From an uncultured Phycisphaerales bacterium (lineage in GTDB: Bacteria > Planctomycetota > B15-G4 > CAYZWU01), in NCBI GenBank assembly GCA_964542475.1, contig CAZIUL010000020.1, positions 540 to 64,539 on the forward strand: DNA of 64,000 nucleotides. The letters run 5' to 3'. The notes under the pieces are model-generated. The model worked only from the letters and a program-made list of their open reading frames with translations, was not told the DNA's origin and ran no database searches. Position numbers and translations under genes: made by a program. Shown piece by piece: positions 1 through 56,765 of the stretch. Numbering within the stretch: the stretch's first letter is position 1; each line of letters starts with the position of its first letter.

Positions 1-1757
1 ACCGTAACGTTACCGGACGGATTGAAGCTGATGGAGCCGTCCGGGTCCACTTTGAACAGCCACACATCCTCGAGGCTCAAGGCAGCGGTTGTGCCGGTGA
101 CGCAATACCCGCTGTTGATGCACTCCTTTGCAGCTCCGGCCAGGTCGTCGCCTGAACCGGCGTAGCTCTTCTCCCACTCCAACACGCCCTCGGGGCTCAG
201 CTTCACGAGCCACAGATCGCGGTCTCCCTCGCCGAAAGAGCAGGTGTCTGCCGCCAGAATGATACCGCCATTTCCATCGACTGAGATGAAACGGCCGTAA
301 TCCTCGAAATCCGTTGCACCGGTGCCGCCGAACGCCTTCTGCCACTCCACATCGCCGTTCAAATCCAGCTTCAGGACCCAGACATCCGGATAGGAGGTGC
401 CGGAGCAATAGGTGTCGCCTGCCACGATGAAACCGCTGTCCGGTGTTTGCGCGATGCTCCGGGCATACTCTTCATAGGTGCTGCCGTAGCTCTTCTGCCA
501 TTCAACATCGCCCGCGGCGCTGAGTTTCAGAATCCAGAAGTCGCCGGCCCCTGCGCCGAAGGAAGAGGTGGTGCCGGCAAGCACGCAGCCTCCGTCATCG
601 GTCGTGGCAGCGGAGAGGGCATAGTCTTCATTGTAGTCGCCGTAGCGCTTCTGCCACTCCACATCGCCGTTCGAATCCAGCTTCAGGACCCAGGCATCCG
701 TGGAGCCCGCCCCGAACGAGGCGGTGGCGCCCACCACGATGTAGCCCCCGTTGCTCGACTTGCATGTAAAAGCGGCAAAATCATAACTAGGGCCGCCATA
801 GGCTTTCTCCCATACGATATTACCCGCCTGATCCAGGTTCAGGATCCAGGCGTCGCTGGCTCCAGCTCCGAAGGCCGTTGTGTTCGCCGCCAGGATCAGG
901 CCGCCTTGCACCGATTCGATGATTGTCTTGCCGTAATCGTCGTAGGCTCCACCGTAGGTCTTCTCCCATTCCACTGCCCCGTCCCTGGCCACTTTCAGGA
1001 CCCAGCAGTCGCTGGGCCCCGCGCCGAAGGAGGAGGTGGTTCCCGCTGCCACGAAGCCCTGGTCTCCCTGGTCAAGGACCGAAACGGCGCTGTCATCGTT
1101 CAGGCCGCAGTAGGCCTTGGCCCACGGGGTCAAGGCTGTCTCACCACCAATGACATCGCTGTAGTCCGACATGCTGCCGTTCTCGTTGTAAGCCCTCAAC
1201 CGGTAAAAATAGAGCGTTTCAGGATCGAGATTTTCGTCCTGATATGACGTGGTATCCGCTGCCAGGTCGGCAATGACCTCGAACTCCATTCTGCCCGTGT
1301 TCCGCTCCAGGCTGTAGCCGTTCTCCATGTCCGAATTGTCCGTCCACTGGAGGTCGATCCGGCTGCTGGAACCGGCCCGGCCCTCCAGGTCCGAGGGCGC
1401 GAAAAGGGTGAAGGCTGTCACACTGTTGCTGTAATCGGATGCATTCTTCGCGTCAAAGGCCCGCACCCGGTAGAGATATTCGGTCTCTGCCTCAGGAACG
1501 TTGTCTTTGCAGGAGGTCTCATCCGCGGCCACAGTGGCTACGACCTTGTAGGTGCCGCCGTTGTCATCGCTGCGCTCGACATCGAAGCCGCTCTCCTTCT
1601 CGGTTTCGTCCGTCCACTCCAGGTACACCTCGGTGCTGGATGCGCCGTAGCCCGTGAGCGTAGGGGGCGTGGTCTTGGCCAGGGAAAATCCGCCGCCGGT
1701 GCTCGAGCGTCTACACCCGCTGCCGAGCAAGGCGATGCCGATGAAAAGAGGGCACAT
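1..1757 (-). CDS. Partial (C-terminus beyond the window start) secreted lipoprotein with two Fn3-like modules followed by SBBP-type beta-propeller repeats (DxWVLKLDxNGxxxWQKxYGG)
   Basis: Manual minus-strand translation from the ATG at 1757 gives MCPLFIGIALLGSGC (signal peptide plus lipobox), then Fn3-like segments (TEVYLEWTD...YRVRA) and at least 6 repeats of about 40 aa such as PDVWVLKLDLNGDVEWQKAFGG. Matching ~120-bp DNA periodicity is visible across 200..1100. The ORF track misses it because no stop codon lies inside the window. Confidence 0.6.
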   Translation of the reverse strand, partial: MCPLFIGIALLGSGCRRSSTGGGFSLAKTTPPTLTGYGASSTEVYLEWTDETEKESGFDVERSDDNGGTYKVVATVAADETSCKDNVPEAETEYLYRVRAFDAKNASDYSNSVTAFTLFAPSDLEGRAGSSSRIDLQWTDNSDMENGYSLERNTGRMEFEVIADLAADTTSYQDENLDPETLYFYRLRAYNENGSMSDYSDVIGGETALTPWAKAYCGLNDDSAVSVLDQGDQGFVAAGTTSSFGAGPSDCWVLKVARDGAVEWEKTYGGAYDDYGKTIIESVQGGLILAANTTAFGAGASDAWILNLDQAGNIVWEKAYGGPSYDFAAFTCKSSNGGYIVVGATASFGAGSTDAWVLKLDSNGDVEWQKRYGDYNEDYALSAATTDDGGCVLAGTTSSFGAGAGDFWILKLSAAGDVEWQKSYGSTYEEYARSIAQTPDSGFIVAGDTYCSGTSYPDVWVLKLDLNGDVEWQKAFGGTGATDFEDYGRFISVDGNGGIILAADTCSFGEGDRDLWLVKLSPEGVLEWEKSYAGSGDDLAGAAKECINSGYCVTGTTAALSLEDVWLFKVDPDGSISFNPSGNVT

Positions 1758-1822: not shown

Positions 1823-4800
1823 TCAGGGTTCCAGGGTTATTGTTATCGGGTTCGATGCGAAAAAGGGATTGGGCGCCAGCATGTAGGCGAAATAGATCTT
1901 CGTCCCCGCCATGATGGGGTTAACCGGCCCCATGGTGTCCAGTGTGGCATTGGCCTTCCCCGCGGCATCCAGGATGCCCATGAAGCTCTTGAATATGGGC
2001 GTGCCCAGGGACGACATGACGATTCCGGTGAAAACATCCCATTTCAGGGGCAGCACCTCTCCTCCCGGCAGGGGGATGCCCGGCTCGGTCCCGGTGGCTG
2101 AGCCAAGCACCAGGTATTGTCGATCCCCGTTCGCTTCTCCCGCGTCCAGGTCTAAACCGATAACCGCGCCCTGGGAGAGGGGGATGGAAAAGGCGTCGGC
2201 CCAGAGGGGCGGGGTCTCCCGGAGGCGGAAGACGCAGAGGTCGTCCATCGCCGCTTCCACAGTGCTGTCGTTGGGATAGTCGCTTGCAATGAACCGCACC
2301 TTCACTGCGGAGGTGGCCTGCACGTAGTCCAAGAGCCTGAAGGACTTGAACTTCCACTGGGGATCATGGGTAAGCTCCATAACCTTTACCCAGGTGGCAC
2401 CGTCGTCGTCTGATACCTGCACCTCGAACGGTTCAAAGGCGCCGTTGAACAAATGATAGAACCAGAGGTTTGCTCCGATCATCACATCCTTACCAGCAAG
2501 ATCCAGGGAAGGTGAGGTGAGCATCGTAGGCCCCCCGTCCAGGTCGTCGTCCCAGTAGTAGACGCCCTGGTTCCCGGTGACGAAGCAGTACATGCCCTGC
2601 TCAGTGCAGTCCTCTTCCGGTTGAGCCATGGTACCGTCCGGCTCCCCCCATTCCCATTCACCGGCCTCGATGTTGAAGCTCTCTATGGTCCAGCCGAGAT
2701 CGGACTCGCAGGCGTCCTTCTGAACAATCTCCATGTAGCCCACATCGAAGGCGTATACCTTGTCGGGCGCGTTCAGCGGCAGAGTTACTGTGGAGCCCCC
2801 GCTGCCCTGCAGGCTGAAGTAGAGCTCGGGTTTGGCACCAAGCGGGGTTTTGGGCAGCACCGCTTCGTAGAGGTTGCCTCCAAGATTCGTGAGGGATACC
2901 GTGCCGTACGGATCGCTGGGATCGAACCGGTAGTACATCATCCCTGATCCCGGAACGTAGCTTTCCAGCCCCGGAGTGATTTCCAGGACAATGTGGGCCT
3001 CGTTGCCTGGAAGACGTAGGCCCTTGGGGGGCTCATCGATGAAGCGCCAGGCCAGCGGTGACTGCACGGCCAGGCTCAGGTCCGGGTTGCCCCAGAGGGA
3101 GCTCCACTCGAAGTACTCGTATTCCAGGTCCGCGTAAAAAAGCCCGTAGATGTACATTTCCTGAAGGGCCCACTGGGTGGCGGCGCCCTGGGAGTACTCT
3201 GCCGAGGTCACCTTTGTGGTGAAGAAGTAGTCCATGGACGAACCGCACCCGTTGTAGGGAAAGCTCCACCCGAGGATGCCGTAGGAGACCTTTGTGGCGC
3301 CGAGAAAGCCGACGGATCCCTGCTTGAGCATCATCTTGCCGATGTTTTCCTCGGCAGTGTCCGAGTTGCTGCAGGCGTTGGCAAAGATCACCGAGGGGAA
3401 ATCGTCGTTGAGGCATGTGCAGTCCGCGCTGGAAATGAACGGCGGCGCATAGATGCCGTATATGTGGCTGGAGAAGGGGGATCCATGGCCGGCCCAGTTG
3501 ACAAAGGCGTACTTTCCGTTGGCCCAGGTCTTGGTGGCGTTCTTGTTCAACAGCTCCAGGTCGCAGTCATAGGTCGAAGAGTACTCGCTGTTTTTCTCAT
3601 AGAGCTTCGTGGTGCTCCAATCCTCCATCCAGGGAATGTCGGGATTGAGGCTTGTGTTACTTTTCAGCTCCATTAGCACCGCGTTGTCCGTATCGGGCCA
3701 GAAGAATGCGCCCAGGAGGAGTATGTTCTTCTTGAAAGAGAGATCGTTGCTCAGCTCGAAGTTGACGGACTTCTTGCAGATGTGCTCCACCGTTTCGGGA
3801 TCGCTCCAGGGGATGCGGCCTGTCTTGACCTCGCCGTAAAAGTCGTTGGCGTCCGAGTCCTCCCCCCACTGGAGGTTGTTGTTGCTGTCCCAGGATTGTA
3901 TGTCCGCCTTGGACAGTTCGGAGTAGTAGTAGTCCGTTTCGGGCCGGCCGTAGCCCATATCCTGGGCGACGGTTCGCATAGGCACATCGTTATTGTCGCC
4001 CACGAGGAGCACGTCCTCGATGCCCCATTTCTCCTGGGGGTAGCAGGCCCTGAGAAAACTCCGGATCTTCGCCGCCAGGTCGTACCCTGGATAGTTGATA
4101 AAGATCCAGCTCGTGGTGACCACCTTCACGGTGCGGCCCTTGGCGGTCTCCCAATCCAGCAGGGGCTGTACCGCAGCGGTCAGGGGGCTTGTGGTGATGA
4201 TCACGTAATCGTACAGGCCCCGACCGCCCATGGTGCAATTTCCGGGATACCAGGCCTGTGCTTCATCGTAGTTGTACACGATCTTCCGGGCGAGGGCCTC
4301 GGTGCGGGGCAGGTTGTCAAGGCGGACCACGTCGCCGGGCAGCTCCTCGGGTTGATCGTAGCTCACACGGATCGTGATGCCGGGATAATGCGTCAGCTTG
4401 CCGGTGCCGGGGTTCCAGCTGAAGGGACAGATCCGGACGTCGGCCAGGTTGTATTTCCTGTAACCCGCCTGCCGGAGGTATGTGGCCTGCTGCGCGGGAT
4501 AGGGAGTCCGGCTGCCGTACACCTCGCTGTAGTTAGCCTCGTAAACCCTCAAATCGCGAGCGTAGCATTCAGGATCCTCAGCGCCTGACACCCTCGGAAG
4601 CGGGCAGGGCGGGATCCGGTACGTGCCGGGAAGGACGATCCCGTTCTCCACCTCATAGGTCACGCCCTTGACGGTTGCTCCCGGTGGAACAGCCACCCCG
4701 AAGATGCGGGCGGGCATGTTCGGCTTTCCAGCAACGAGCAGCCGGCCGAAGCCTTCCACAAAGATCTCCCGGCCATCGCCCACAGCCTTGATCTGGTAAG

Positions 4801-4936
4801 GGCCCGGCTTGATCGTCACAGTGACCGTGCCCTCCTCGGCCGCAGCCGATCCTGCAGAAACGAGAAGCGCCGCAGCGGCCAGGAGCAGAATGATCGCCTG
4901 GGATTCAATGCGCATGGTCATCGATCCGTCCTCCAA
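1823..4936 (-). CDS. Gingipain-like cysteine peptidase (family C25) with signal peptide and a C-terminal ~90-aa domain ending ...ITITLEP
   Basis: 1037 aa. His/Cys dyad motifs NWAGHGSPF and FANACSNSD; N-terminal signal peptide; C-terminal domain paralogous to that of 38114..40426. Confidence 0.7.
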   Translation of the reverse strand: MEDGSMTMRIESQAIILLLAAAALLVSAGSAAAEEGTVTVTIKPGPYQIKAVGDGREIFVEGFGRLLVAGKPNMPARIFGVAVPPGATVKGVTYEVENGIVLPGTYRIPPCPLPRVSGAEDPECYARDLRVYEANYSEVYGSRTPYPAQQATYLRQAGYRKYNLADVRICPFSWNPGTGKLTHYPGITIRVSYDQPEELPGDVVRLDNLPRTEALARKIVYNYDEAQAWYPGNCTMGGRGLYDYVIITTSPLTAAVQPLLDWETAKGRTVKVVTTSWIFINYPGYDLAAKIRSFLRACYPQEKWGIEDVLLVGDNNDVPMRTVAQDMGYGRPETDYYYSELSKADIQSWDSNNNLQWGEDSDANDFYGEVKTGRIPWSDPETVEHICKKSVNFELSNDLSFKKNILLLGAFFWPDTDNAVLMELKSNTSLNPDIPWMEDWSTTKLYEKNSEYSSTYDCDLELLNKNATKTWANGKYAFVNWAGHGSPFSSHIYGIYAPPFISSADCTCLNDDFPSVIFANACSNSDTAEENIGKMMLKQGSVGFLGATKVSYGILGWSFPYNGCGSSMDYFFTTKVTSAEYSQGAATQWALQEMYIYGLFYADLEYEYFEWSSLWGNPDLSLAVQSPLAWRFIDEPPKGLRLPGNEAHIVLEITPGLESYVPGSGMMYYRFDPSDPYGTVSLTNLGGNLYEAVLPKTPLGAKPELYFSLQGSGGSTVTLPLNAPDKVYAFDVGYMEIVQKDACESDLGWTIESFNIEAGEWEWGEPDGTMAQPEEDCTEQGMYCFVTGNQGVYYWDDDLDGGPTMLTSPSLDLAGKDVMIGANLWFYHLFNGAFEPFEVQVSDDDGATWVKVMELTHDPQWKFKSFRLLDYVQATSAVKVRFIASDYPNDSTVEAAMDDLCVFRLRETPPLWADAFSIPLSQGAVIGLDLDAGEANGDRQYLVLGSATGTEPGIPLPGGEVLPLKWDVFTGIVMSSLGTPIFKSFMGILDAAGKANATLDTMGPVNPIMAGTKIYFAYMLAPNPFFASNPITITLEP

Positions 4937-9393: not shown

Positions 9394-9756
9394 CTATGAA
9401 CGGGCGAACAGCAGGTAGGGCAGCGGGGGTGATCTTATGCTGGGAAACAGGGTCGCAGGGTTCGAAAAGGGGCGTCTGTCCGGACATGCGCTTTCTCCGC
9501 ACAGGTTTTCCCATGCCAGAGGCTGAACATCGGCATCCTGAGGATAAATCACCTGGAGGCTGTTCAGCATCTGGCATTCAGGGCAGTTGTCCTGGTCGTG
9601 TTCCTTTCCATGTTCATGTTCATGTTCATGTTCCGCGTGAAAGATATGAACAACATGGTGAACAGGACCGGCACCCAACAAAAAAACCGAAAGGAGCAGC
9701 AGGACTCCGATCAGCCTTATCAAGGGCACATCTGTTTTTCGGTTATCTTGTTTCAT
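9394..9756 (-). CDS. Small membrane-anchored/secreted His-rich protein (HHVVHIFHAEHEHEHEHGKEHDQDNCPEC), putative metal-binding
   Basis: N-terminal hydrophobic segment; the (HE)n run is encoded by an in-frame (CATGTT)4 hexanucleotide repeat at 9609..9632; first gene of the metal-uptake strand. Confidence 0.45.
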   Translation of the reverse strand: MKQDNRKTDVPLIRLIGVLLLLSVFLLGAGPVHHVVHIFHAEHEHEHEHGKEHDQDNCPECQMLNSLQVIYPQDADVQPLAWENLCGESACPDRRPFSNPATLFPSIRSPPLPYLLFARS

Positions 9757-9840
9757 ATCGCTGCTGGTAAACTACCCGCTCCACTCCCGGATTGTCAAAC
9801 AATAAATGGTTTACCAGGACACTTCCGGGTTGTAGGCTAA

Positions 9841-10013
9841 CCCGCTTATTTCATACTCTTCGTCGCGAGGTAGCTGTAAACTGTGTTGTGGCAAGGCGCA
9901 TGCCAGGAGACGACCGCAGGCCTGTTCCTACAGGCTGAGGATCGTCTCCTGGCATGAAACGCAGCTACAGCGCAGGTTACAGTGCCGCAGCAGATGAGTA
10001 TGAAATAAGCGGG
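9841..10013. repeat. Palindromic MITE-like repeat, family A, copy 1 (~173 bp)
   Basis: Shares termini cccgc(t/a)tatttcat...atgaaataagcggg and the central hairpin caggagacga...tcgtctcctg with copies at 18534..18705 (inverted), 22111..22282 and 53539..53709; flanked by taa / ttaa. Confidence 0.8.
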
Positions 10014-10077
10014 TTAAAGCCTCGAACTCCTTTTCCTTGTCAATGTGACAAGGTTTACCTGTTGAGCCTGCATACAC

Positions 10078-12006
10078 ATGCCAAACCAAACGAAAGTTGA
10101 GCCGGTAACAACTGTAGAGGAGGCTGCTGAACCGGATGTAAGCCTTGCAGCATACCGAACAGGTACCGGCCGGTTCATTGTGCTTCTGCTCACGCTCGTG
10201 CTTCTTCTCCCCTTCCTGACCAAGGCGGTTACCTGCGACGATCCGCTTTTTTTGTGGGTGGCACGGCACATTCATATTCGAAAAGAAGCCCCGCTGTCAC
10301 CGTTTCTCGAAAAAATCCACGACCCGGAAAAAGCGCGCGTACTCAAGGAGCACATACTCAACCCATACGGGTTCGACGGGAACTGGTTCGGCGATACGGC
10401 GCCCATGCATCTGAACATCCAGAACCCGCCGCTCTCATCGTACTGGCTCGCCTTCGCGGGCCTGGCCGGGTGGGACGAGTGGTGGCTGCACCTTGCCATG
10501 CTCGTCTGGCCGCTGCTCGCCGTGGCGGGAACCATGCGCCTGGCTGGGCTGCTCAAGGCTGACCCGGTAAAAGCCGGGCTCCTGACCGTTGGAACGTCGG
10601 CGTTCCTGGTATCCGCCACAAACCTGATGTGCGATGTCATGCTGGTTGCGCTCATGGTCTGGTCCGTGCTCCTGTGGGTCGAGGGGCTCGAAGAAAAGGG
10701 ACGGCGTAAAGCCCGGCGGATCGCCGCGTCCGCGCTGCTCGCAGCCGCTGCCGGGCTCACCAAGTACTTTGGCGCGGCCCTGGTGCCGCTGCTCGCGGCG
10801 TACACCGTATTCCTGTGCCCGCGGGTGAAAAACCGGCTCGCATGCCTGTCAGCCCTGCTCTTTCCTGTTATCGTGCTGGCCGCGTGGGAGATCTGGACCA
10901 TGCATCTGTACGGCATGGGACACATGTTCGGTGCGGCAGAGTACACACAAAAAACAGGGGCTGTCATCTTCGGGTTCGACCGCGTATACGCCTTCCTTAC
11001 CTTTCTCGGCGGGTGCGTCTTGTGGCCGCTCGTGATCGTTCTTTTCGAGGGCGGATGGATCGTGCGCATGGCACTGCTTGTCAGTGGCGCGCTCGGCCCG
11101 CTCGGGCTCTGGCTGATCACCGCAAAACGAACAGCGGGTGCGCCCATGCTCTGGCTTCTTGAAACAGTCAACATGAACCGCAAAATAATATCATTTGAAA
11201 CTTACCTGCTCAGCGCGGTGTTCACAGCCGCGGGCCTGGCAACACTGATTCTCGTTGCGAACCGCCTACGGAAGCGCCGCTCCGACAACCGAGTCCGGCT
11301 TTCCGGGCTCTGGATCCTGGGTGTGCTTGCGTTCGCCGCGTTCATAAACTGGACCGTTGCAGCGCGCACCATCCTCCTTCTCGTGCCACCGCTCGCCATC
11401 CTGGCTGCAACGCACGCTCCTCCGCGCAAGGACAAGGGAGAGGTGCGGAACCGGCATCCGCTGCCGGGTGCGGCCAGCAGCCGAAAAGAGGCCTCGGCCT
11501 GGTGTAGCGCTGCGGTGCTCGGTGTGGCCGTGGCGTTTTGCGCGGCATGGAGCGACTTTGCGTGGGCAAACTCTGTACGCGGTCATGCCCGAGAGATCAT
11601 GCACAGGCACGGGAGGGAAAACCAAAGAGTGCTCTTCTACGGGCACTGGGGCTTCCAGTACTACATGCAGGAGCTCGGCGCGGGGCCGGCCGCCATGGCC
11701 GAAGCGGACAGCGGGTTTTTCCCGGGCGACCTCATCGTGTTCCCAAAGAACAACTACATCGTGCCTTACAAGAGCTTCAAGAAACGGAAAGAGTGGGAGA
11801 TCCTGGAGGAAAAGGCCGCCGAAGGGCTTCCGTACTTATGCCTCACCGATGTTACGGGAGGCGCCGGGTTCTACGGCCACAAGGTCGGTCCGCTGCCGAT
11901 CTGCGTGCCTGAAGAGGAGCCGGATGTCTACGCTGTCATGAGACGCCGCCACAGGTCCGAAGAGCCGGGCAGCACCATGGAACAGGATCAGGGCCGGGAA
12001 AAATGA
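10078..12006 (+). CDS. Polytopic membrane glycosyltransferase, GT39/ArnT/PMT-like (lipid carrier-dependent)
   Basis: 642 aa with about 11 predicted TM helices, a conserved acidic motif near the N-terminus (CDDPLF) and a large C-terminal soluble domain; stop overlaps the start of the next gene (ATGA). Confidence 0.6.
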   Translation: MPNQTKVEPVTTVEEAAEPDVSLAAYRTGTGRFIVLLLTLVLLLPFLTKAVTCDDPLFLWVARHIHIRKEAPLSPFLEKIHDPEKARVLKEHILNPYGFDGNWFGDTAPMHLNIQNPPLSSYWLAFAGLAGWDEWWLHLAMLVWPLLAVAGTMRLAGLLKADPVKAGLLTVGTSAFLVSATNLMCDVMLVALMVWSVLLWVEGLEEKGRRKARRIAASALLAAAAGLTKYFGAALVPLLAAYTVFLCPRVKNRLACLSALLFPVIVLAAWEIWTMHLYGMGHMFGAAEYTQKTGAVIFGFDRVYAFLTFLGGCVLWPLVIVLFEGGWIVRMALLVSGALGPLGLWLITAKRTAGAPMLWLLETVNMNRKIISFETYLLSAVFTAAGLATLILVANRLRKRRSDNRVRLSGLWILGVLAFAAFINWTVAARTILLLVPPLAILAATHAPPRKDKGEVRNRHPLPGAASSRKEASAWCSAAVLGVAVAFCAAWSDFAWANSVRGHAREIMHRHGRENQRVLFYGHWGFQYYMQELGAGPAAMAEADSGFFPGDLIVFPKNNYIVPYKSFKKRKEWEILEEKAAEGLPYLCLTDVTGGAGFYGHKVGPLPICVPEEEPDVYAVMRRRHRSEEPGSTMEQDQGREK

Positions 12007-17068: not shown

Positions 17069-18427
17069 TCAGTTGATGTCGTTGTCGTTGTTGCCGTTGT
17101 TTTTGTTGAGAACGATCTGTAACGTGGGCACGACCGGTTCCGGAGGCGGTCTTGCACCGGCTGTCTCGCCGAGTACATCCAGGTCTCCGTCTCCATCCAT
17201 GTCTACCAGTGTAAGGTGATGGAGCGCTGCAAGGTCAGAGCGCACCCTGCATTCGGCCCAGACACGCCCGCCGTTTCTATCGGTTTTGCCCGCGAAGATC
17301 ACAAGTGTCCCGTCCCTGTCGTTCCAGGAGGGGTTATCCACGCTCCCGGGCGTCTTTCGCCAGTTCATCGCTCCGGTGACCACATCAAGCACATCGTTGC
17401 CGTCCAGGTCCGCCACCCCAAGGTTTTCGGGATCCTGCTCCACGGTGCCGAGCACCTTTGCCCGCCCCCTGATCTCGGCGCCCGGCCCGGTCCTGTTGAA
17501 CCAGATCCCTATTCTGGACGAACCCACGCGGTGCGAGTGCCCCTCCGAGAAAACGAGGTCCGCGTCTTTGTCACCATCCATGTCAGTAGCCACGATGTTC
17601 GACGGGGAAAAGTTCGTTGTCCAGGAAAAACCGGTCCAGGCCTCATCCAGCTTTCCTTTCGGGTTCAGCCAGACCGTTCTGTACTGAACAATGTCATTGA
17701 AACCGTCCCCATCGATGTCAGCCGCGCACAAACCGAAATCCACAGGCCGCACAAACCCATCCGGGCCCGTGATCGGAACCCTGCGCCATATCGCGCGCGT
17801 CCCCTGGTTTTCGAGCTTGTAAACAGCCAGCCAATCGTTCTCCCTGTCCGTGCTTTCGATATAAGCGGCTCCGCGCGGAGCAATGATCTCGGGCACACCG
17901 TCGTTGTCCAGGTCCGAGGCAACAATGTCGTGCAGGAAGTTTCCTGGAACGGGATCGAGAACGAAGCGCTCCCATTCGTCCGCTCTGACACCCGGATTCT
18001 TCCACCAGAACAGAAGGCCGGGCATGGTCCTGTTGTCCGCACCTCCCCCGCCTGCTGAAACCAGGTCCGGCAGTCCGTCCAGGTCCATGTCCAGCACGAG
18101 CAGTCCGTTCGCGCACCCTTCGCAATCGATTGTATGGCGGCAAAAGCACAGGCCTTTGTTCTCCCGCTCCAGCCAGAAAACCATGTCAGGCCCGACTGCG
18201 GCGATATCCAGGTCGTCATCGAGGTCAAGATCGCATGCGCTCACAGCGCCGGGCAATGACCAGGTGCGCGAATCCAGCACCACTACAGAATCCCCATTCC
18301 ACGCGCCCTCGAGGAAAACAACCGAATCAGGCGGCTCGATCCCCGGGCCGCACCCCACAGCTTGCGCCAGGAGCAAGATGACCGGAAAAACCAGCCTGAA
18401 GGTTTCCAGCGTCATACGGTAAAACAC
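17069..18427 (-). CDS. FG-GAP/VCBS-repeat lipoprotein (integrin-alpha-like beta-propeller)
   Basis: Signal peptide plus lipobox AVGC; multiple DxDGDGxxD calcium-binding-like FG-GAP repeats. Confidence 0.6.
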   Translation of the reverse strand: MFYRMTLETFRLVFPVILLLAQAVGCGPGIEPPDSVVFLEGAWNGDSVVVLDSRTWSLPGAVSACDLDLDDDLDIAAVGPDMVFWLERENKGLCFCRHTIDCEGCANGLLVLDMDLDGLPDLVSAGGGGADNRTMPGLLFWWKNPGVRADEWERFVLDPVPGNFLHDIVASDLDNDGVPEIIAPRGAAYIESTDRENDWLAVYKLENQGTRAIWRRVPITGPDGFVRPVDFGLCAADIDGDGFNDIVQYRTVWLNPKGKLDEAWTGFSWTTNFSPSNIVATDMDGDKDADLVFSEGHSHRVGSSRIGIWFNRTGPGAEIRGRAKVLGTVEQDPENLGVADLDGNDVLDVVTGAMNWRKTPGSVDNPSWNDRDGTLVIFAGKTDRNGGRVWAECRVRSDLAALHHLTLVDMDGDGDLDVLGETAGARPPPEPVVPTLQIVLNKNNGNNDNDIN

Positions 18428-18533: not shown

Positions 18534-18705
18534 CCCGCATATTTCATCCTCTTCTGCTGCGGCACCGTAACCTGCACTGTGGCTGCGTTTCATGCCAGGA
18601 GACGATCCTCAACCTGTAAGAACAGGCCTGCGGTCGTCTCCTGACATGCGCCTTGCCACATCACAGTTTACGGCACCTCGCGACGAAGAGTATGAAATAA
18701 GCGGG
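18534..18705. repeat. Family A palindromic repeat, copy 2 (inverted orientation relative to copy 1)
   Basis: Same arms and central hairpin as copy 1; flanks cctaa / ctaat. Confidence 0.8.
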
Positions 18706-18818
18706 CTAATAATAGATTTTGTTGGCCGGTATTTAATGGCAAATCTGCAGGCAATAGTGTCATTTCTTATGCTTATCAAGAAAGGTCTTGACCTCTTTTT
18801 TAACACGGAGCATCAGCA

Positions 18819-21380
18819 GTGAAAAAACACCGAGTACACCTGATCTGCAACGCGCACCTCGATCCTGTGTGGCAGTGGCGCTGGGAGGAGGGATGCGCGG
18901 AAGCAATGGCAACCTTCCAGACCGCTGCCGACCTGCTCGATGAACACCCGGACCTGATCTTCAATCACAACGAGGCGCTGCTATACAGGTGGGTCGAAAA
19001 ATACGATCCGCGGCTTTTCCTGCGGATCCGGGAGCTCGTTAAACAGGAGCGCTGGCACATCAGCGGCGGCTGGTTCCTGCAGCCGGACGCGAACCTGCCG
19101 GGCGTCGAATCGTACTTCCGCCACATCCGGGAAGGGAGGCTTTACTTCCTCGACCGCTTCGGCGTGACACCGCGGGTGGCTTACAACTTCGACTCGTTCG
19201 GCCACTGCTGGGGTCTTCCGCAGGTGCTTCGGCTCTGCGGGTACGACATGTACATCCACATGCGGCCGGGAAGGGACGGGCTCGACCTTCCATCCGAGCT
19301 GTACCAGTGGGAAGGGGCGGACGGAACGAGGATCCCCGCGCTCAGGATCGAGGTCGGCCTTTACCACACCGAGCGCGACAACATCGAGGACCGCCTCAGG
19401 CAAGGCGTTGAGGCCGCCCTGAAACAGGGAAGGGATGTGCCGGTTTTCTGGGGGCTCGGAAACCACGGCGGAGGCCCCACCAGGGAAGACCTGAAAAAGA
19501 TCGATGAGTTCATGGGCAATGAAAAGCGCGTCTCGATAATCCACAGCACGCCGGAGTCGCTGTGCGAGGCCCTTGCTGTGCACGCCCGTGTGGCGCCGAT
19601 CAAAAAAGGAGACCTGCAACGCGCTTTCACAGGGTGCTACACATCGCTTTCGCGCTTGAAGCGAAGAGCGCGTAAAAGCCTGGGCCGCCTGAAACAGGCT
19701 GAGGCCATGGCTGCGGCGGCATGGTGGGCCGAAGGCGCGGATTATCCGGATGAGAGCATTGAACAGGCATGGAGGGACCACCTTTTCAACGATTTTCACG
19801 ATATCCTGCCCGGAACATGCATCCAGCCCGCTGAGCAGGATTCGCTCGACATATACGGAAAGGCTGCCGAATGTGCGCGGAACCTGCGTCTGGGCGCCAT
19901 TGCATCGCTCACCCGCGGACCGGGGAGGCAGGGCTCTGCGCTTCCCGTAACCGTGATGAACACCTCCCCGTCGACAAGGCTCGTACCTGTTGAAGTGGAG
20001 TTCATGGCTGACTACCGGCCGTATTGGAAAGGCGACTGGAGAATGAGCCTCCGGACACCCTCCGGAAAAAAGCCGCTTTTTCAGGAGGAAAAACCGGAGT
20101 CCCTCCTACCGTTCAACGACTGGCGCCGAAAGGTCTGTTTCATGGCTGATCTGCCGGGGCTGGGCATCGCGCACTACCTGCTTGAAGCCCATGAAAAAAA
20201 AGCTGAAGCATCAATGCCCGGACAGGCGGCAGGACGAGCGGATGCCGCTCCGCTTGATGAGGACACGCCGGTCTGCTGCTCGACCGACCCATCGACCGGA
20301 CTGATCACCGGGATGCGCACAAGCACCGGAAAAGAGTGCGTATCAGGACCTCTGCTCCAACCTGTCGTGGTCCTGGATCACGGCGATTCATGGGGTACCG
20401 GGCTGGACAGGTACAACGAAGAGGCCGGCCGGTTCGAGGCAATGAAGGGCTCTGTGAAAACCGTTCAGCGCGGCCCGGTAAGGAGCATCATCGAATCTGT
20501 CCACACCTACGGATCGAGCAGGATCGTCATGCACACGATCACCTACACCATGTGGCCTGTTGTAGAGCTCCGTTTCCGCGTTCTCTGGAACGAGGCATCG
20601 AAAAGGCTGAAGCTCGGTATCCCGACGGTGTTTTCGGACGGGACTCTCGATTGCGAGATCCCCGGAGGTGTAATAACCAGACCTGCTGACGGACGGGAAC
20701 ATGTTCACGGCCGCTGGATGATAATTGGGGAAAAAAACGGAACAGCAGCGCTCGGCATCGTGAACTCCGGACAGCACGGAATCGATTTCCAGCAAGGCCG
20801 CGCGCACCTGTCTGTCCTCAGGGGCCCTGCTTACTGCCACGAGCAAGGGCTGGATTTGACAGACCGTGAGGTAAAACATATGGATCAAGGCGTTCACCAG
20901 TTCCGCCTCCTTGCCGTTGCTGGAGAAGCGGGAGAGCTCGCTGTAAAGCTGCCGGGGCTTGCCGACTGGCTCGACGCACCCCCCATTGCAATCGCACACC
21001 TGCCCGCGGGCAAGCTGTTCGACCCCCCACAACCCAAAGGGTCAAGCGTTCGGCAGGCAAGGCTGTTCCCAGGTGAACTGCTTTCACTGTCGCCTGGAAA
21101 CGTGCGCATGACCGCTTTCAAGCGTTCACAGGACAAAAAGGGACTCACCATCAGGCTGCAGGAATCCGCGGGAAAGAAATGCAATGCACGCATTCTTTTA
21201 AGAAAAAAGGGACAAGAAGAGGGAGCAGATTACCCGAAAGATATAAAAGACAGATATGACCGGATCAACAGCGACTCGGTCATCGATGCGCAGATGATCT
21301 TTAACCCTTTTGAAATCAAAACGTTACGCCTTAACCGTTCCGGAAGTTGGCATGAGACCGACCCGGTTCTAGAATTGTGA
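18819..21380 (+). CDS. Glycoside hydrolase, alpha-mannosidase-like (GH38-type N-terminal domain)
   Basis: 853 aa; the N-terminus HLICNAHLDPVWQW resembles the GH38 catalytic N-domain, but the family assignment is by eye only. Confidence 0.5.
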   Translation: MKKHRVHLICNAHLDPVWQWRWEEGCAEAMATFQTAADLLDEHPDLIFNHNEALLYRWVEKYDPRLFLRIRELVKQERWHISGGWFLQPDANLPGVESYFRHIREGRLYFLDRFGVTPRVAYNFDSFGHCWGLPQVLRLCGYDMYIHMRPGRDGLDLPSELYQWEGADGTRIPALRIEVGLYHTERDNIEDRLRQGVEAALKQGRDVPVFWGLGNHGGGPTREDLKKIDEFMGNEKRVSIIHSTPESLCEALAVHARVAPIKKGDLQRAFTGCYTSLSRLKRRARKSLGRLKQAEAMAAAAWWAEGADYPDESIEQAWRDHLFNDFHDILPGTCIQPAEQDSLDIYGKAAECARNLRLGAIASLTRGPGRQGSALPVTVMNTSPSTRLVPVEVEFMADYRPYWKGDWRMSLRTPSGKKPLFQEEKPESLLPFNDWRRKVCFMADLPGLGIAHYLLEAHEKKAEASMPGQAAGRADAAPLDEDTPVCCSTDPSTGLITGMRTSTGKECVSGPLLQPVVVLDHGDSWGTGLDRYNEEAGRFEAMKGSVKTVQRGPVRSIIESVHTYGSSRIVMHTITYTMWPVVELRFRVLWNEASKRLKLGIPTVFSDGTLDCEIPGGVITRPADGREHVHGRWMIIGEKNGTAALGIVNSGQHGIDFQQGRAHLSVLRGPAYCHEQGLDLTDREVKHMDQGVHQFRLLAVAGEAGELAVKLPGLADWLDAPPIAIAHLPAGKLFDPPQPKGSSVRQARLFPGELLSLSPGNVRMTAFKRSQDKKGLTIRLQESAGKKCNARILLRKKGQEEGADYPKDIKDRYDRINSDSVIDAQMIFNPFEIKTLRLNRSGSWHETDPVLEL

Positions 21381-21591
21381 ACAGGCAACAGAACCGTTTT
21401 GACCCGGAGTACGTCAAAAAAATGTATGTGTTCTCAGGCATGAACTCCATTGAATACATCAAGTTTGTGGTATTATCGAAACTCGATAGAAAGCCTGAAC
21501 ACAAGCACACGTTTAAACCTACACGGGTATAACAGCTTAAAAATAAGCGGGTGAACCGGTTCTTAACCTAACGCCGGGACAGGACATCAGA

Positions 21592-22110
21592 TTGAACAAC
21601 CATCGCACATCTTCGAACGGGTTGTACGACTTAATCGTCAGCCACGGGTTCGCTTGCGACTCCATGCTGAAGGGGCTCGCCCGCTGGCTCCGGGCCGCGG
21701 GTTATGATGCGTGGTGGTCGTATAACATCGATGATGCCGAGCTGATCCGCTTCGCAAAAGAAGAAAAACGAGTCCTGGTCACCAGCGACTCGGGCATTAT
21801 GAAAACCCTCGCTGCATCTAACGGCGAGTTCCCCTCGCTTTTCATCCCCAGGGAAATGAACGTGCCGGAGCAGGTAAAGCACGTGTTCACCGAGTTCGAA
21901 CTTAACCGCCTTCAGCCGCGCTGCATGAAGTGCGGCGGTCATCTCGCATGGATTCCCAAGGCATCGGTCAGAGAAGAAGCGCCATCCAAAACCTACTGCT
22001 GGCTCGATGATTTCTACAGGTGCCTGCGTTGCGGCCAGCTCTTCTGGAAAGGCACACACTGGATCAAGATCCAGGACCGCCTCCGCGACGTGGTTCCGTT
22101 CACGTCCTAG
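21592..22110 (+). CDS. Mut7-C (DUF82) PIN-like RNase domain protein with C-terminal zinc ribbon
   Basis: DSMLKGLARWLRAAGYDA... followed by CxxC...CxxC (CMKCGG...CLRCGQ). Confidence 0.6.
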   Translation: MNNHRTSSNGLYDLIVSHGFACDSMLKGLARWLRAAGYDAWWSYNIDDAELIRFAKEEKRVLVTSDSGIMKTLAASNGEFPSLFIPREMNVPEQVKHVFTEFELNRLQPRCMKCGGHLAWIPKASVREEAPSKTYCWLDDFYRCLRCGQLFWKGTHWIKIQDRLRDVVPFTS

Positions 22111-22282
22111 CCCGCATGTTTCATACTCATCGTAGCGAGGCGCTGTAAACTGTGTTGTGGCAAGGCGCATGGCAGGAGACGACCGCAGGCCTGTTCCTAC
22201 AGGTTGAGGATCGTCTCCTGGTATGAAACGCAGCATGAACGCAGTTTACGGTGCCGCAGCAGATGAGGATGAAAAATGCGGG
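22111..22282. repeat. Family A palindromic repeat, copy 3, starting immediately after the TAG stop of the Mut7-C gene
   Basis: Sequence identity to copies 1, 2 and 4. Confidence 0.8.
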
Positions 22283-22336
22283 CCAGGTCAGTCCTCTTCC
22301 TCCGCATCCTCCTTGTCCACCGTGGTTCTCTTTCCT

Positions 22337-23131
22337 TTACTCTTTTTCGTGAGGAATCCTCGCAATCAAAGAAGGGATGAAATCCAGGTAGTCGCATGAT
22401 GCCAGGTGGTAGCTGACCCCCTTGCGCACTCCAAGAAACGAACATCCCGGAGAAGGCACGGCTTTATGCAGATGGCCGAACACGCAGTGGTGGATGCCTG
22501 CTTCTTCCATCAGGCGTGAAGCTCTCGTCTCTTCGAAATCGATGGAAATGGGAGGAAAATGGACCATTGCTATCCTCAGCTCCGCCCTTGAATTCATGTC
22601 CGCAAGAGCCATTTTCAGCCGGTTGAGCTCCCGTGTAAAGATCTTTTCATCCCTTTCCGGATCTTGCATTACAGGCGGTTTTTCACCTTTTGCGCGCGAA
22701 GCAGGCGGCAGATCCAGATCCTCTCTTTGAGGAAGGCCCAGCCCCGGCATCCGGATATCTTCCCACAGCCTCGTTCCAGCGATGGCCACACCATCGATGA
22801 AGAGCGCGTCGTGATGAAGGGCAAACACGTTGTCAGGCAGCGCGGACCTGACCTTTGCGACAGAGCTCCACCAGTAGTCGTGGTTGCCGCGAACCAGCAC
22901 TTTCCTGCCTGGTAGGCCGGCGATGTACTCGATGTCTGGACGGGCATTGTCGAGCTTCATGGCCCACGATATATCACCCGCAATGAGAAGTATGTCTTTG
23001 TCTCCCACGACCTCTTTTGAGCGCTGTTCGATTTTCCGCTCGTGGTCGTTCCAGTACCTTCCAAAGGCCGACATGCTTTTCCCGGGCACTCCCGCTGAAA
23101 GATGCAGGTCTGAAATCGCGAAAATATTCAT
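22337..23131 (-). CDS. Calcineurin-like metallophosphoesterase
   Basis: Motifs SDLHLS, GDISW, GNHDYW and GHLH. Confidence 0.7.
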   Translation of the reverse strand: MNIFAISDLHLSAGVPGKSMSAFGRYWNDHERKIEQRSKEVVGDKDILLIAGDISWAMKLDNARPDIEYIAGLPGRKVLVRGNHDYWWSSVAKVRSALPDNVFALHHDALFIDGVAIAGTRLWEDIRMPGLGLPQREDLDLPPASRAKGEKPPVMQDPERDEKIFTRELNRLKMALADMNSRAELRIAMVHFPPISIDFEETRASRLMEEAGIHHCVFGHLHKAVPSPGCSFLGVRKGVSYHLASCDYLDFIPSLIARIPHEKE

Positions 23132-23496: not shown

Positions 23497-23690
23497 TTAA
23501 CCTTAATGCGTCAAAAGCTTCGGCATAAAACGCTTCGCTTGGCCGATAGCACGCCATCTACAACATAAAACCAATTTTCCGTCTCCTCACATAAGATGCA
23601 CTTAAGTTCCGGGACAAAAAACCGATTTTATGCTGTAGCTGATGCACTCTTGGCCATTTCTGCTCGAAGCTTTTGACGCATTAAGGTTAA
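23497..23690. repeat. Family B element: 194 bp bounded by perfect 26-bp terminal inverted repeats ttaaccttaatgcgtcaaaagcttcg
   Basis: Perfect TIRs at 23497..23522 and 23665..23690; the core ccttaatgcgtca recurs as inverted termini at 53815..54040. Confidence 0.7.
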
Positions 23691-23691
23691 G

Positions 23692-23750
23692 CCGCACATT
23701 TCACTCTCATATGCTGCGGCATCGTAAACTGCCGACGCGCATTTTTCCAG
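23692..23750. repeat. Degenerate single arm of the family A repeat, in the trkH 3' region
   Basis: gccgcacatttcactctcatatgctgcggcatcgtaaactg... resembles the family A arm but is diverged. Confidence 0.4.
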
Positions 23751-23754
23751 GAGA

Positions 23755-25272
23755 TCATCTTTTCCATGCAAGGGGAAAGAACAGAATCAGCACCGCATAG
23801 ATCTCGAGCCTCCCAATAAGCATGCACATGGCAAGTATGATCTTGCCGACCGCGGGGATGTGGGCGTAGTTTTCAACGGCGCCCACTCGTCCAAGGCCGG
23901 GGCCGATGTTCGAGATGCAGGCAAGCACCGATGAAAACGCTGTCTCCAGGTCCAGCCCGAGCAAATGCATAAAAACAGAGCATATACCAAAGAGAAGAAA
24001 ATAAAGGATCAAAAAGCCGGCGGTGTTGCCTATCACCTCTTCCGGAATTGTTCTTTGACGGATCTTTACGTTGAAGACGGCTCTCGGTCTTATGATACGC
24101 CTGATCTCCCTGAAACCGGTTTTGAATGCGATGAGGAGCCGCACCACCTTGATTCCTCCGCCGGTAGATCCGGCACTCGCTCCGATCACCATCAAAACGA
24201 TCAGCAGAAAACGGCACACGTGGGGCCACGCGTTGAAGTCCTCGGTGCAGAAGCCGGTAGTGGTCATTACAGCAACCGACTGAAAAACCGCGTCCCTGAC
24301 CGCTTTACCCGGGACGTCGTACCCGGCGCCATCCTTGTAGGTTTCAGGCCCGGCGAACCTTTCCGGAGGGCAAAAATAGAGATGAAGCCCGATTATCGCT
24401 ATGGCTACGACGAGTATTCCAACATAGAGCCTGAACTCACTGTTCCTGTAAACAGGCTTGAAGCGCGCGCGGATCAAGTGGAAATAAAGCACAAAGTTGA
24501 CGCCTGCCAGAAACATGAAAACGATGATCACCCACTGGATCGCCGGACCGTAGAATCCGATGCTCACGTTCTTGGTGGAGAATCCGCCGGTAGCCATGGT
24601 GCCGAATGCATGGCAGAACGAATCCAGCAGGGGCATTCCCAGAATCCATAAAACCAGCGTTTCACCGAGTGTGAGCGCTGTATAGATCATCCACAGGATC
24701 TTGGCCGTATCCGCGATCCTGGGACCCAGCTTGTCCGTTGTAGGGCCCGGCACCTCAGCCCTGAACAGGATGTTGCCTCCCGCTCCCAGAGCTGGAAGCA
24801 CAGCAATGGAAAGCGCAACGATCCCCATGCCGCCGAGCCAATGCGTCAGCGAGCGCCAGAACAGGATTCCCGAAGGAAGGCTTTCGATGCCGTCCGGAAG
24901 GGTATCGGATTTTGCGAAAATGGTTGCCCCTGTTGTTGAGAAGCCGGACATGGTCTCGAAAACCGCATCGACCACGCTGGTACAGACGCCTGACAAGTAG
25001 AACGGGATGGCGCCAAGCAGGGTCAAGAGCACCCAGGACAGGGTTACGGTTGCAAAGCCTTCACAAAGCCCGAAGCCGCTGGAATCGAACTTGAACTTCC
25101 GCTTGAAAAACAGCCCGATCAGGACCGAAGCCAGAACAGCAACCAGAAACGCGCGGACCTCCCGCGTGGGCCCTTGACCGCAGAACAGGGCGATTCCCAG
25201 GGGGATCAACAAAAACAGGCCGAGCAGCAAAGCCAGCCAACCCAGGATGTGCAGCACTGAACGGATGTTCAC
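23755..25272 (-). CDS. trkH: TrkH/KtrB-family potassium uptake protein
   Basis: 505 aa polytopic protein with the repeated pore-loop architecture typical of TrkH; overlaps trkA by 4 bp. Confidence 0.85.
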   Translation of the reverse strand: MNIRSVLHILGWLALLLGLFLLIPLGIALFCGQGPTREVRAFLVAVLASVLIGLFFKRKFKFDSSGFGLCEGFATVTLSWVLLTLLGAIPFYLSGVCTSVVDAVFETMSGFSTTGATIFAKSDTLPDGIESLPSGILFWRSLTHWLGGMGIVALSIAVLPALGAGGNILFRAEVPGPTTDKLGPRIADTAKILWMIYTALTLGETLVLWILGMPLLDSFCHAFGTMATGGFSTKNVSIGFYGPAIQWVIIVFMFLAGVNFVLYFHLIRARFKPVYRNSEFRLYVGILVVAIAIIGLHLYFCPPERFAGPETYKDGAGYDVPGKAVRDAVFQSVAVMTTTGFCTEDFNAWPHVCRFLLIVLMVIGASAGSTGGGIKVVRLLIAFKTGFREIRRIIRPRAVFNVKIRQRTIPEEVIGNTAGFLILYFLLFGICSVFMHLLGLDLETAFSSVLACISNIGPGLGRVGAVENYAHIPAVGKIILAMCMLIGRLEIYAVLILFFPLAWKR

Positions 25273-36553: not shown

Positions 36554-37927
36554 CTATTCGATTTTTATCTCGAGCTGTGACTTCACGGATTCCAGCGTCG
36601 CTTTGTGCTTCTCGACCTTCTTCATGATATCGGCTATCACATCCGGATGTTTTTCCGCTACATCGAACCTTTCGGACGGGTCATGCTCCAGGTGGTACAG
36701 GGCGGGCGGATCATGGGAAACAGGTTTTTCCCCGTATCCGGCCTGGGTTATAAAATGCGCTTTCCACGGCCCGCTTCGAACAGCCATCAGCCTGGTACCC
36801 CGGTAAAAGAACATGCTGTCCCGCCTGCTGTTTCCATCACCTGCCAGAATCGGTATCGCATCCACACCGTCGATCACGCGGTCCGTTGGCAGCTTGGCAC
36901 CGGCCATCAGAAGAGAAGTCGTAAAAATGTCCATTGTACATGCGGGTTGTGCGCTCACTGACCCTGCCTCGATGGTGCCCGGCCACCAGGCTATACATGG
37001 CTCGCGCATCCCTCCCTCCCAGGTGCTGCCCTTCCCCCCGCGCAGGAGGCCGGCTGATCCGCCCCTGAGCCCGCAGATAAGCCACGGGCCGTTGTCGCTT
37101 GTAAAATATACGAGCGTGTCCTGGGCAAGCCCGAGCCCGCGCAAGGTGTCAAGAATCCTGCCCACGCTCCAGTCGAGCTCCTCCACAACATCCCCGTACA
37201 GCCCGCGCCTGCTCGTGTCGCGATACGCATCGGACGCGTATAGGGGAACATGGGGAAAGGTGTGGGCGAAATACAGGAAAAAGGGGGCATCCGCGTTTTC
37301 ACGAATAAAACGTAACGCCTCGTCAGTGTACCGCTCTGTGAGCGTGTCCTGGTCCGCGGGCTCCTCTATCTGCTCTTCGTTTCGCAGCAGCGGACAAGGT
37401 TTCATGTCGTTGCTGTACGGGATGCCGAAGTAATGATCGAAACCTCGCCCGCGTGGAAGGTACTCCGGCAAGTGCCCCAGGTGCCACTTGCCCACGCATG
37501 CGGTGGCATACCCCTCTTTTTTAAGCGCTGAAGCGATCGTGATCTCCGATTCGGGCAACCCGCCCGCCGAATCCGGAAACAGGACGCGCCGCTTGTCGCT
37601 GCACATCCCGGATCTGACAGGGAGCCTGCCGGTAAGCAGGGCCGCGCGGCTTGGCGTGCACACCGATGCCGCCGAATAGAACTGGGTGAGCTTCATGCCC
37701 TCCAAAGCCATCCTGTCCAGGTTTGGGGTCTTGATGGTGGGGTGGCCCAGGCATCCCAGGTCACCGTAGCCCAGGTCATCAGCAAAGATCAAAACAATGT
37801 TCGGCTTTTCCCGGCGGGTAGAACAGTCAAGCGCCCTGCAGCCCGATCCAAGCGGAACAAAAGCCGCGGAACCGGCAAGACATACAAAACCCTGTCCCGT
37901 GGCCTTTAAAAAAGTCCGTCTGTTCAT
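36554..37927 (-). CDS. Arylsulfatase (formylglycine-dependent), Tat-type signal peptide
   Basis: Sulfatase signature CTPSRAALLTGR; MNRRTFLKATG twin-Arg leader; start taken at the internal Met with SD ggagga. Confidence 0.85.
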   Translation of the reverse strand: MNRRTFLKATGQGFVCLAGSAAFVPLGSGCRALDCSTRREKPNIVLIFADDLGYGDLGCLGHPTIKTPNLDRMALEGMKLTQFYSAASVCTPSRAALLTGRLPVRSGMCSDKRRVLFPDSAGGLPESEITIASALKKEGYATACVGKWHLGHLPEYLPRGRGFDHYFGIPYSNDMKPCPLLRNEEQIEEPADQDTLTERYTDEALRFIRENADAPFFLYFAHTFPHVPLYASDAYRDTSRRGLYGDVVEELDWSVGRILDTLRGLGLAQDTLVYFTSDNGPWLICGLRGGSAGLLRGGKGSTWEGGMREPCIAWWPGTIEAGSVSAQPACTMDIFTTSLLMAGAKLPTDRVIDGVDAIPILAGDGNSRRDSMFFYRGTRLMAVRSGPWKAHFITQAGYGEKPVSHDPPALYHLEHDPSERFDVAEKHPDVIADIMKKVEKHKATLESVKSQLEIKIE

Positions 37928-38113
37928 TTCTCCTCCCTTGAAAAAAACGCCCGGCCTGTTTTTTTTCGATGTAAGCCCTGGCTTTGCAAACAGATGCAAC
38001 TGCTTTGAGAGATGCACATTATAATTATGAACTTGCAAGAACCATAATGTTTTTATATTATATGCCGAAAAGTCATATCACAGCTCAAGCCAAACATTTG
38101 AAAGGTAGAAACC

Positions 38114-53472: not shown

Positions 53473-53538
53473 GTCTCATCCCTGTATCAAAAGTGTTGAA
53501 AAGAGATCGAAACTCCCAGTGCATGGTAATTCGGTAAG

Positions 53539-53709
53539 CCGCTTATTTCATATTCTTCGTCGCGAGGTAGCTGTAAACTGTGATGTGGCAAGGCACATGT
53601 CAGGTGACGACCGCAGGCCTGTTCTTACAGGTTGAGGATCGTCACCTGGCATGAAACGCAGCCACGGCGCAGTTTACGGTGCTGCAGCAGAAGAGGATGA
53701 AATATGCGG
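53539..53709. repeat. Family A palindromic repeat, copy 4
   Basis: Identity to copies 1-3; flanks gtaag / tttaac. Confidence 0.8.
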
Positions 53710-53814
53710 TTTAACTTTAATCGATGTGGAAAGGGTTGTCAAGGGGAGGCAAATAAGGCTTTGGGAAAAGGAGGAGGAAGAGAAAGAAAGAAGATTATCC
53801 ATCAATAACAATTG

Positions 53815-56707: not shown

Positions 56708-56765
56708 CCCGCATATTTCATCCTCTTCAGCTGCGGCACCGTAACCTGCACTGTGGCTGCGTTAA
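56708..56765. repeat. Single truncated arm of the family A repeat wedged between the BtpA stop and the stop of the next convergent gene
   Basis: cccgcatatttcatcctcttcagctgcggcaccgtaacctgcactgtggctgcgtt is identical to the first arm of copy 2. Confidence 0.7.

Follow-up and report, generated by a model that had tools for sequence, protein, structure and literature searches.

We identified four full copies and two half copies of a hairpin-forming repeat of ~173 bp in the 64-kb stretch of DNA analysed here (the window), using BLAST, profile search and alignment (Table 1). The repeat is probably a family of non-autonomous DNA transposons (MITEs) of the Correia/ERIC/RUP kind. By sequence it appears to be a member of none of these three families and to be previously uncatalogued. 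A first-pass annotation of this DNA had described the repeats as palindromic and MITE-like, a reading upheld by copies outside the window, TA in 10 of 12 flanks and conserved terminal repeats. MITEs are a common form of selfish DNA, and the finding leaves the current understanding of them unchanged. What it contributes is a MITE family with a clear-cut TA/TAR target rule, which explains why some insertions fall exactly on stop codons; the lineage that carries it is deep-branching and uncultivated.

BLASTN of copy 1 against the window recovered the other three full copies at 89.6-93.1% identity (E 1e-62 to 1e-70; 1e-62 to 1e-88 over the four copies). Pairwise identity among the four is 86-93%, and the mean column identity of their alignment is 91%. 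An invariant central 19-mer occurs four times in the window, against 0.02 expected occurrences. BLAST with copy 1 also matches a 56-nt partial at 56708-56763 (87.5% identity) and a 41-nt partial at 23692-23732, the second of which was stretched to 23692-23770 by a profile built from seven copies. The four full repeats of the first-pass annotation are therefore confirmed by BLAST and alignment, with the limits of copy 4 refined. The truncated arm that it placed beside BtpA and the diverged arm that it placed in the trkH 3' region are also genuine, the latter being longer than the 23692..23750 first given. A solo terminus proposed at 21541-21551 proved to be a mere 11-nt match, and the profile finds nothing there. 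The window is ~90% coding, and all six copies fall within the non-coding 10%.

Table 1. Copies of the repeat and open reading frames derived from it. Coordinates are window positions unless a locus outside the window is named; flanks are written as base-TA-base (see text).
Feature	Coordinates	Strand	Length or extent	Left flank	Right flank	Detection	Remarks
Full copy 1	9841-10013	+	173 nt	C-TA-A (TA 9838-9839)	T-TA-A (TA 10015-10016)	alignment, BLAST, profile	
Full copy 2	18534-18705	- (inverted)	172 nt	T-TA-G	T-TA-G	alignment, BLAST, profile	
Full copy 3	22111-22282	+	172 nt	C-TA-G (TAG 22108-22110)	C-CA-G, degenerate (CA 22284-22285)	alignment, BLAST, profile	
Full copy 4	53538-53710	+	173 nt	G-TA-A	T-TA-A	alignment, BLAST, profile	termini GCCGC...GCGGT
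Half copy	56708-56763	-	element positions 118-173 only			BLAST, profile (E 3.5e-13)	
Diverged partial copy near trkH	23692-23770	-	profile positions 89-172			profile (E 1.6e-7)	
Copy at L019			full copy	T-TA-G	C-TA-G		upstream of, and antisense to, an ARMT1-like gene
Copy at L020			partial copy				contig begins inside the copy
Copy at L030			full copy	T-CA-G	C-TA-G		88.5% identical to copy 1; 93.7-kb contig
Copy at L031	370-426 of locus		half copy				
Copy at P0125							diverged, known from peptide alone; 12.9-kb contig from a different sample series (JGI 3300042731)
Spurious ORF starting inside copy 2	18592-18822	+					identical to database protein P0002
Repeat-derived ORF	9928-10275	-					
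Repeat-derived ORF	9954-10100	+					
Repeat-derived ORF	21631-22236	-					only the N-terminus derives from the repeat

The element is bounded by terminal inverted repeats of ~21 nt with the consensus (R)CCCGCWTATTTCATMCTCTTC. Each of the eight ends of the full window copies carries the pattern CCCGCWTATTTCATMCTCTTC with no more than two mismatches, in agreement with the conserved termini described earlier. This pattern has nine matches in the window against 0.01 expected, the ninth being the outer end of the 56708 half copy. The central stem reported in the first-pass annotation is likewise present, as CAGGAGACGA-N28-TCGTCTCCTG. The whole element is an imperfect palindrome, and either strand is able to fold to a hairpin of ~70 bp (predicted fold -97 to -117 kcal/mol, z about -13). 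For copy 1, one strand folds at -115.2 kcal/mol (z = -12.9) and the opposite strand at -97 kcal/mol (z = -11.2). Seven copies together give a consensus fold of 68 pairs in seven helices, with the core CAGGAGACGA / TCGTCTCCTG enclosing an inner hairpin. Rfam 15 at the gathering threshold gives a single match in the window, to a tRNA, and none in the repeat. A permissive Rfam scan of copy 1 returned only generic hairpin matches, at 16-24 bits against thresholds of 67-100.

At 172-173 bp and with no credible ORF, the element is small enough for the MITE class, for which we required a length well under 500 bp and no transposase or other real coding. In six-frame translation, two frames are open over most of the element (53-55 codons) and stops close both ends. 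Both of these frames are closed by the TAA/TAG flank, and neither contains an ATG ahead of its last two codons. In the remaining four frames, a stop lies near the element centre.

We compared the flanks of the six full copies for which both sides are known (copies 1-4, L019 and L030), written as x-TA-r1 to the left and y-TA-r2 to the right of CCCGC...GCGGG. The two flanks that lack TA carry CA instead. TA has a frequency of 2.4% across the window and of 4.2% in the intergenic part; relative to this background the excess in the flanks has P about 1e-12, and it bears out the TA-type target duplication proposed in the first-pass annotation. Five copies with a single known flank likewise have TA-A. 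The base after TA is the same on both sides (r1 = r2) in all six full copies. Under a model of 2-bp TA duplication, the inverted repeat is one base longer and r1 pairs with y in five of six copies. Under a 3-bp TAR model, the triplet TAA or TAG is the same on both sides in four of six, the other two having CAG against TAG. The flank sequences fit a duplication of either 2 bp (TA) or 3 bp (TAA/TAG). A 4-bp duplication does not fit them, with x = y in only two of six copies. The inferred pre-insertion targets are CTAA, TTAG, CTAG, GTAA, TTAG and TTAG, or NTAR (the last assumes that the CA of L030 was TA).

These targets allow comparison with two transposase groups. IS630 elements use a CTAG target and duplicate TA, and the NTAR targets resemble this rule. 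Tourist-like MITEs (PIF-Harbinger) and IS5-group insertion sequences make a short fixed 3-bp duplication that contains TA; their usual target is the palindromic TNA or TWA, as opposed to the TAR of the 173-bp element. No IS5-family transposase was seen among the window genes, and Pfam identifies no transposase, integrase or RAYT domain among them.

In the mechanism we favour, a DDE transposase encoded elsewhere in the genome would bind both terminal repeats and excise the element, mobilising it in trans. The element would then be pasted into a YTAR site, with duplication of TA or TAR. Transposition would follow an IS630/Tc1-like rule if TA is duplicated and an IS5-group rule if TAA/TAG is duplicated. 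TAA and TAG are both duplicated targets and stop codons, so an insertion exactly at a gene stop would rebuild the stop and be harmless, which would account for the copies that touch gene ends. Insertions would otherwise persist solely in intergenic DNA, and the element would probably be neutral for its host.

The window region is represented by contigs from at least nine samples, which match it at 99.7-100% identity and have the same insertions in place. Outside this clone, the closest homologue of the flanking GH38 gene has 57-59% identity, and there is therefore no orthologous empty site to compare; a search for empty sites that went through homologues of the flanking genes (GH38, BtpA and others) and the members of their clusters found none, the sequences being either this clone or relatives below 60% identity. 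Mobility is accordingly something that we infer and have not observed.

The ORFs inside the repeats were expected from the first-pass annotation to give near-identical peptides. They do so, and public databases carry these peptides as 'proteins'. Artefact ORFs of this origin are deposited as 'hypothetical proteins' P0001-P0003 and P0124-P0126, and another is found at L024:15635-15799. The database tables hold no Pfam matches for the repeat-derived ORFs. At least six spurious public 'proteins' trace to the repeat, and masking it would clear them.

We used the accidental peptides of the repeat as probes for further copies in a protein database. The outward frame (MPGDDPQPV...EEYEISGL) retrieved three database 'proteins', including the window ORF at 18592-18822, and the other two matches led to the new loci L019 and L020. 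The inward frame (LTRIFHPLLLRH...ILNL) retrieved three further 'proteins', which led to L030, L031 and P0125. The L030 copy is flanked by genes for a secretin and a HAD hydrolase. At least 11 distinct sites are now known, and the neighbouring genes differ at each. The first-pass annotation had held that confinement of the copies to the window would count against its reading; L019, L020, L030, L031 and P0125 all lie outside. In P0125 the arm peptide is conserved and the central-stem peptide differs (DFVAYHDSILNM vs GCVSCQETILNL). This difference, known at the peptide level, hints that the other sample series contains a subfamily with its own core.

Public contigs covering this region terminate inside copies of the repeat: L017 ends in copy 2, L018 ends in both copy 1 and copy 2, and L028 ends in the 56708 half copy. 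Contig ends of this kind are expected for a multi-copy element. Breaks inside the repeat occur in independent JGI, ENA and Logan metagenome assemblies, including the ends of L019 and L020. The repeat fragments the metagenome assemblies of its host population.

Nucleotide scans of wider collections were also made. At least 16 matches to the invariant 19-mer GACGACCGCAGGCCTGTTC in a genome collection were rejected as chance: they lie in unrelated G+C-rich genomes and extend over 19-24 nt only. A metagenome scan with CAGGNGACGACCGCAGGCCTGT gave no match, and that collection evidently lacks the source samples (the sequence is present in JGI 3300009128, L017). A scan of metagenome and viral contigs for the terminal-repeat pattern gave two chance matches (L021 and L023) and, at the end of a contig, one match that may be a copy (L022) but is not significant.

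Several observations are good evidence that the complementarity of the two arms is maintained, to the extent that an alignment of seven copies related by descent can indicate it. First, 96.7% of paired cells in the seven-copy alignment are standard pairs. Second, seven base pairs show double changes that preserve pairing; shuffling the columns gives 3.0 +/- 1.1 such pairs, and none of 500 shuffles attains seven. Finally, when partners are slid by 1-3 columns, no compensatory pairs appear. Compensatory changes in the central stem include A-T to T-A (copy 4) and A-T to G-C (L030), and half-changed states are found at the same stem position (A.A in L019, T.T in L020). In all seven sequences (six full copies and the partial copy L020), one of the two strands has the better fold, by 16-21 kcal/mol. 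Arm mismatches on this better-folding strand have G-U:A-C ratios of 4:1, 7:1, 5:2, 8:2 and 5:3. There is thus a weak hint that the relevant molecule is RNA of one polarity. Compensatory changes deep in the central stem are unneeded for transposase binding, and hint at an extra constraint beyond the plain MITE model. Master-copy selection, hairpin-templated repair or gene conversion between copies could be the source of the covariation pattern.

An addition to the MITE explanation, rather than a replacement for it, is that the element is a MITE by origin whose long hairpin is kept by selection for a role in RNA. We regard this as possible and on balance unlikely. By analogy with other repeats, a hairpin co-transcribed within a 5' or 3' UTR could serve as an RNase III-type determinant of processing or stability, or give rise to small RNA: RNase III cuts Correia elements, and ERICs change mRNA decay (PMC10969869). 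The seven double-substituted pairs, two different ones of which lie in the central stem far from the termini, are consistent with such a role, as are the strand-biased fold in 7/7 sequences and the predominance of G-U mismatches on that strand. However, the copies share descent and their counts are not independent, the A.A and T.T states are uncompensated, and hairpin-templated repair or gene conversion could yield the same pattern in the absence of an RNA function. Orientation relative to genes is informative in two or three copies and is inconsistent, the L019 copy being antisense to its downstream gene.

A stronger version, which we consider doubtful, holds that the hairpin is itself selected and the element partly domesticated. 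It would then be a structured, strand-specific RNA module, acting as an sRNA precursor or as a signal for processing or stability, which spreads by transposition and uses TAA/TAG targeting to dock exactly on stop codons at no cost to the genes. If this were true, the recurrent survival of a single arm would reflect directional hairpin-driven deletion or a residual function of the arm. The hairpin constraint is open to RNA-level tests on the adjacent operons, which encode a GH38 mannosidase, an IOR/POR-type oxidoreductase and a histidine kinase.

The first-pass annotation placed the repeats directly against gene ends and compared them with terminators or mRNA stabilisers. Pfam agrees with its gene names, including Mut7-C, BtpA and TrkH. 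Its statement on position stands for copy 3 and both half copies, and fails for copies 2 and 4 and probably copy 1, which lie between divergent 5' ends. Copy 3, between the convergent Mut7-C (+) and Metallophos (22337-23131, -) genes, does begin directly past the Mut7-C stop codon, as claimed. The BtpA stop TAA (56705-56707) adjoins the outer terminus of the 56708 half copy, the inner end of which is 5 nt from the stop of a convergent DUF3857 gene (56769-58691, -). In the 23692-23770 partial copy, TTAA precedes the outer terminus and the trkH stop codon (23755-23757) lies within the partial. The trkH stop, and possibly the last few codons, is in element-derived sequence (23755-23770), and the Pfam TrkH match ends six residues before the C-terminus.

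The remaining window copies are found at the starts of genes. Copy 1 is 65 nt upstream of the ATG of a 642-aa gene (10078-12006, +) and has a hypothetical ORF (9394-9756, -) on its other side. Copy 2 is between the 5' ends of an FG-GAP gene (17069-18427, -) and a GH38 alpha-mannosidase gene (18819-21380, +), and copy 4 is between the 5' ends of a POR/IOR-type gene (51895-53472, -) and a histidine kinase gene (54122-55822, +). Five of the six full copies with known context sit upstream of genes and not at 3' ends.

The claimed terminator or mRNA-stabiliser role is unsupported by these positions and by the sequence of the copies. Terminator-like sites were absent from the three copies scanned (copies 1, 2 and 4), as were sigma-70-like promoters. 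Reading by eye past the right terminus of copies 1-4 showed no T-run, only YTAR followed by unrelated flank. The three half copies (56708, 23692 and L031) have no significant fold of their own, including the two at gene ends. We therefore consider a role of the copies in transcription termination or in 3' stabilisation of mRNA, as the reason for a position at gene ends, very unlikely. In its favour, the hairpin is highly stable and copy 3 and both window half copies do adjoin stop codons, but the hairpin is not followed by a T-run, copies 2, 4 and probably 1 lie between divergent starts, and L019 and L030 are upstream of genes. At L030, moreover, the upstream secretin gene has its own hairpin-plus-T-run terminator ahead of the element. 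Docking on stop codons is better explained as a by-product of target choice, with no sign of a 3'-end function. Just outside copy 4 there is a sigma-70-like site (53714-53742, -; TTGACA-17-TAAAGT, 10/12 matches). This site points through copy 4 to the POR/IOR-type operon and, if used, would place copy 4 in the 5' UTR of that operon.

Bacterial MITEs such as Correia, ERIC and RUP elements are recognised by TA at their termini, by terminal repeats, by a target duplication and by a long hairpin (PMC2229807, PMC10969869). RUP, a 107-bp element of pneumococcus, is thought to be mobilised in trans by IS630-Spn1 (PMC2229807). Like RUP, the repeat described here is short, non-coding, intergenic and multi-copy, with terminal inverted repeats and TA insertion (PMC2229807). 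Unlike RUP, with which it has no sequence similarity, it is 173 bp long, G+C-rich and palindromic throughout, and its duplication may be 3 bp.

Correia (NEMIS) elements of Neisseria are ~107-155 bp long, with TA termini, a target duplication and terminal inverted repeats of ~24-26 bp (PMC2229807). They form a long hairpin in transcripts and are often just upstream of genes (PMC2229807, PMC10969869). The present repeat shares with them the terminal TA with target duplication, terminal inverted repeats, a long predicted hairpin and a frequent position upstream of genes. It differs in its unrelated sequence and host, and in the lack of a sigma-70-like promoter inside the scanned copies.

ERIC/IRU (127 bp) and YPAL/RU-2 (~168 bp) are enterobacterial intergenic imperfect palindromes that form long stem-loops (PMC2229807). 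As in the 173-bp element, they contain accidental short ORFs and can adjoin gene ends; ERIC shares the TA termini, and YPAL is likewise not A+T-rich (PMC2229807). YPAL differs in lacking TA termini and in its variable duplications of 3-26 bp, as opposed to the fixed TA/TAR of the 173-bp element. A blastn search (word size 11, E <= 0.01) against 5,426 complete genomes of E. coli, where ERIC is present, gave no match, and blastn against 72,556 plasmids and 50,697 phage records found nothing similar.

The first-pass label 'Correia/REP-like' is apt in its first half, as Correia (and also ERIC and RUP) elements are good analogues. REPs are a poor comparison by size, duplication and transposase: they are ~35 nt long, make no target duplication and depend on RAYT. 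It is hardly credible that the copies are attC-like folded sites (integron cassettes or CALIN, clustered attC sites with no integrase) or REP/BIME sequences moved by a tyrosine recombinase or RAYT instead of a DDE enzyme: they are imperfect palindromes with a strand-biased fold, some have TAAC...GTTA ends as in attC R''/R' cores (copy 1) and one directly follows a stop codon, but nothing matches E. coli REP/BIME, the window has no integrase or RAYT, and the copies lie 3.4-31 kb apart in both orientations among large housekeeping-type genes. For attC sites we looked for R'' (RYYYAAC) and R' (GTTRRRY) cores in a one-orientation cassette array; the core triplets instead vary (AAC, AGC or AAG on the left, GTT, GCC or GCT on the right), and there is no cassette array.

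Pairwise identity between copies is 86-95% (5-14% divergence). This divergence, together with three decayed half copies, indicates that the family is no longer young and has had no very recent burst. The same arm, at element positions ~117-173, is kept in each of the three half copies (56708, 23692 and L031). Two of them end at the base of the central hairpin, and the diverged 23692 copy extends to approximately the central loop (profile position 89). The 56708 arm shares 98% identity with the corresponding arm of copy 2, a similarity that suggests recent conversion or a recent origin of this half copy.

We also identified a second, unrelated palindromic element of 194 bp at 23497-23690, with perfect 26-nt terminal inverted repeats (TTAACCTTAATGCGTCAAAAGCTTCG). 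Its predicted fold has -101 kcal/mol (z = -12.7); the window contains one copy, and none is present in the 33 loci examined. Its TTAA end adjoins the outer terminus of the diverged 23692 half copy. It probably represents a second MITE family that inserted at TTAA beside the remnant.

The host belongs to a poorly sampled lineage, and no window protein has a homologue of >60% identity outside its own clone. The best named matches of the GH38 gene are labelled Calditrichaceae (Calditrichia) and Aminicenantes, at 53-54% identity. Sulfatases, C25 peptidases and the GH38 mannosidase are abundant in the window (36554-38038, 42546-44183, 1823-4921, 38114-40426 and 18819-21380). This gene content suggests that the host may be a polymer-degrading heterotroph. 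Six tandem units of ~156 nt, 60-76% identical, are found at 160-1059 inside a coding region, for which the public gene call is a large fn3-type protein. They look like a repeated protein domain unrelated to the MITE family.
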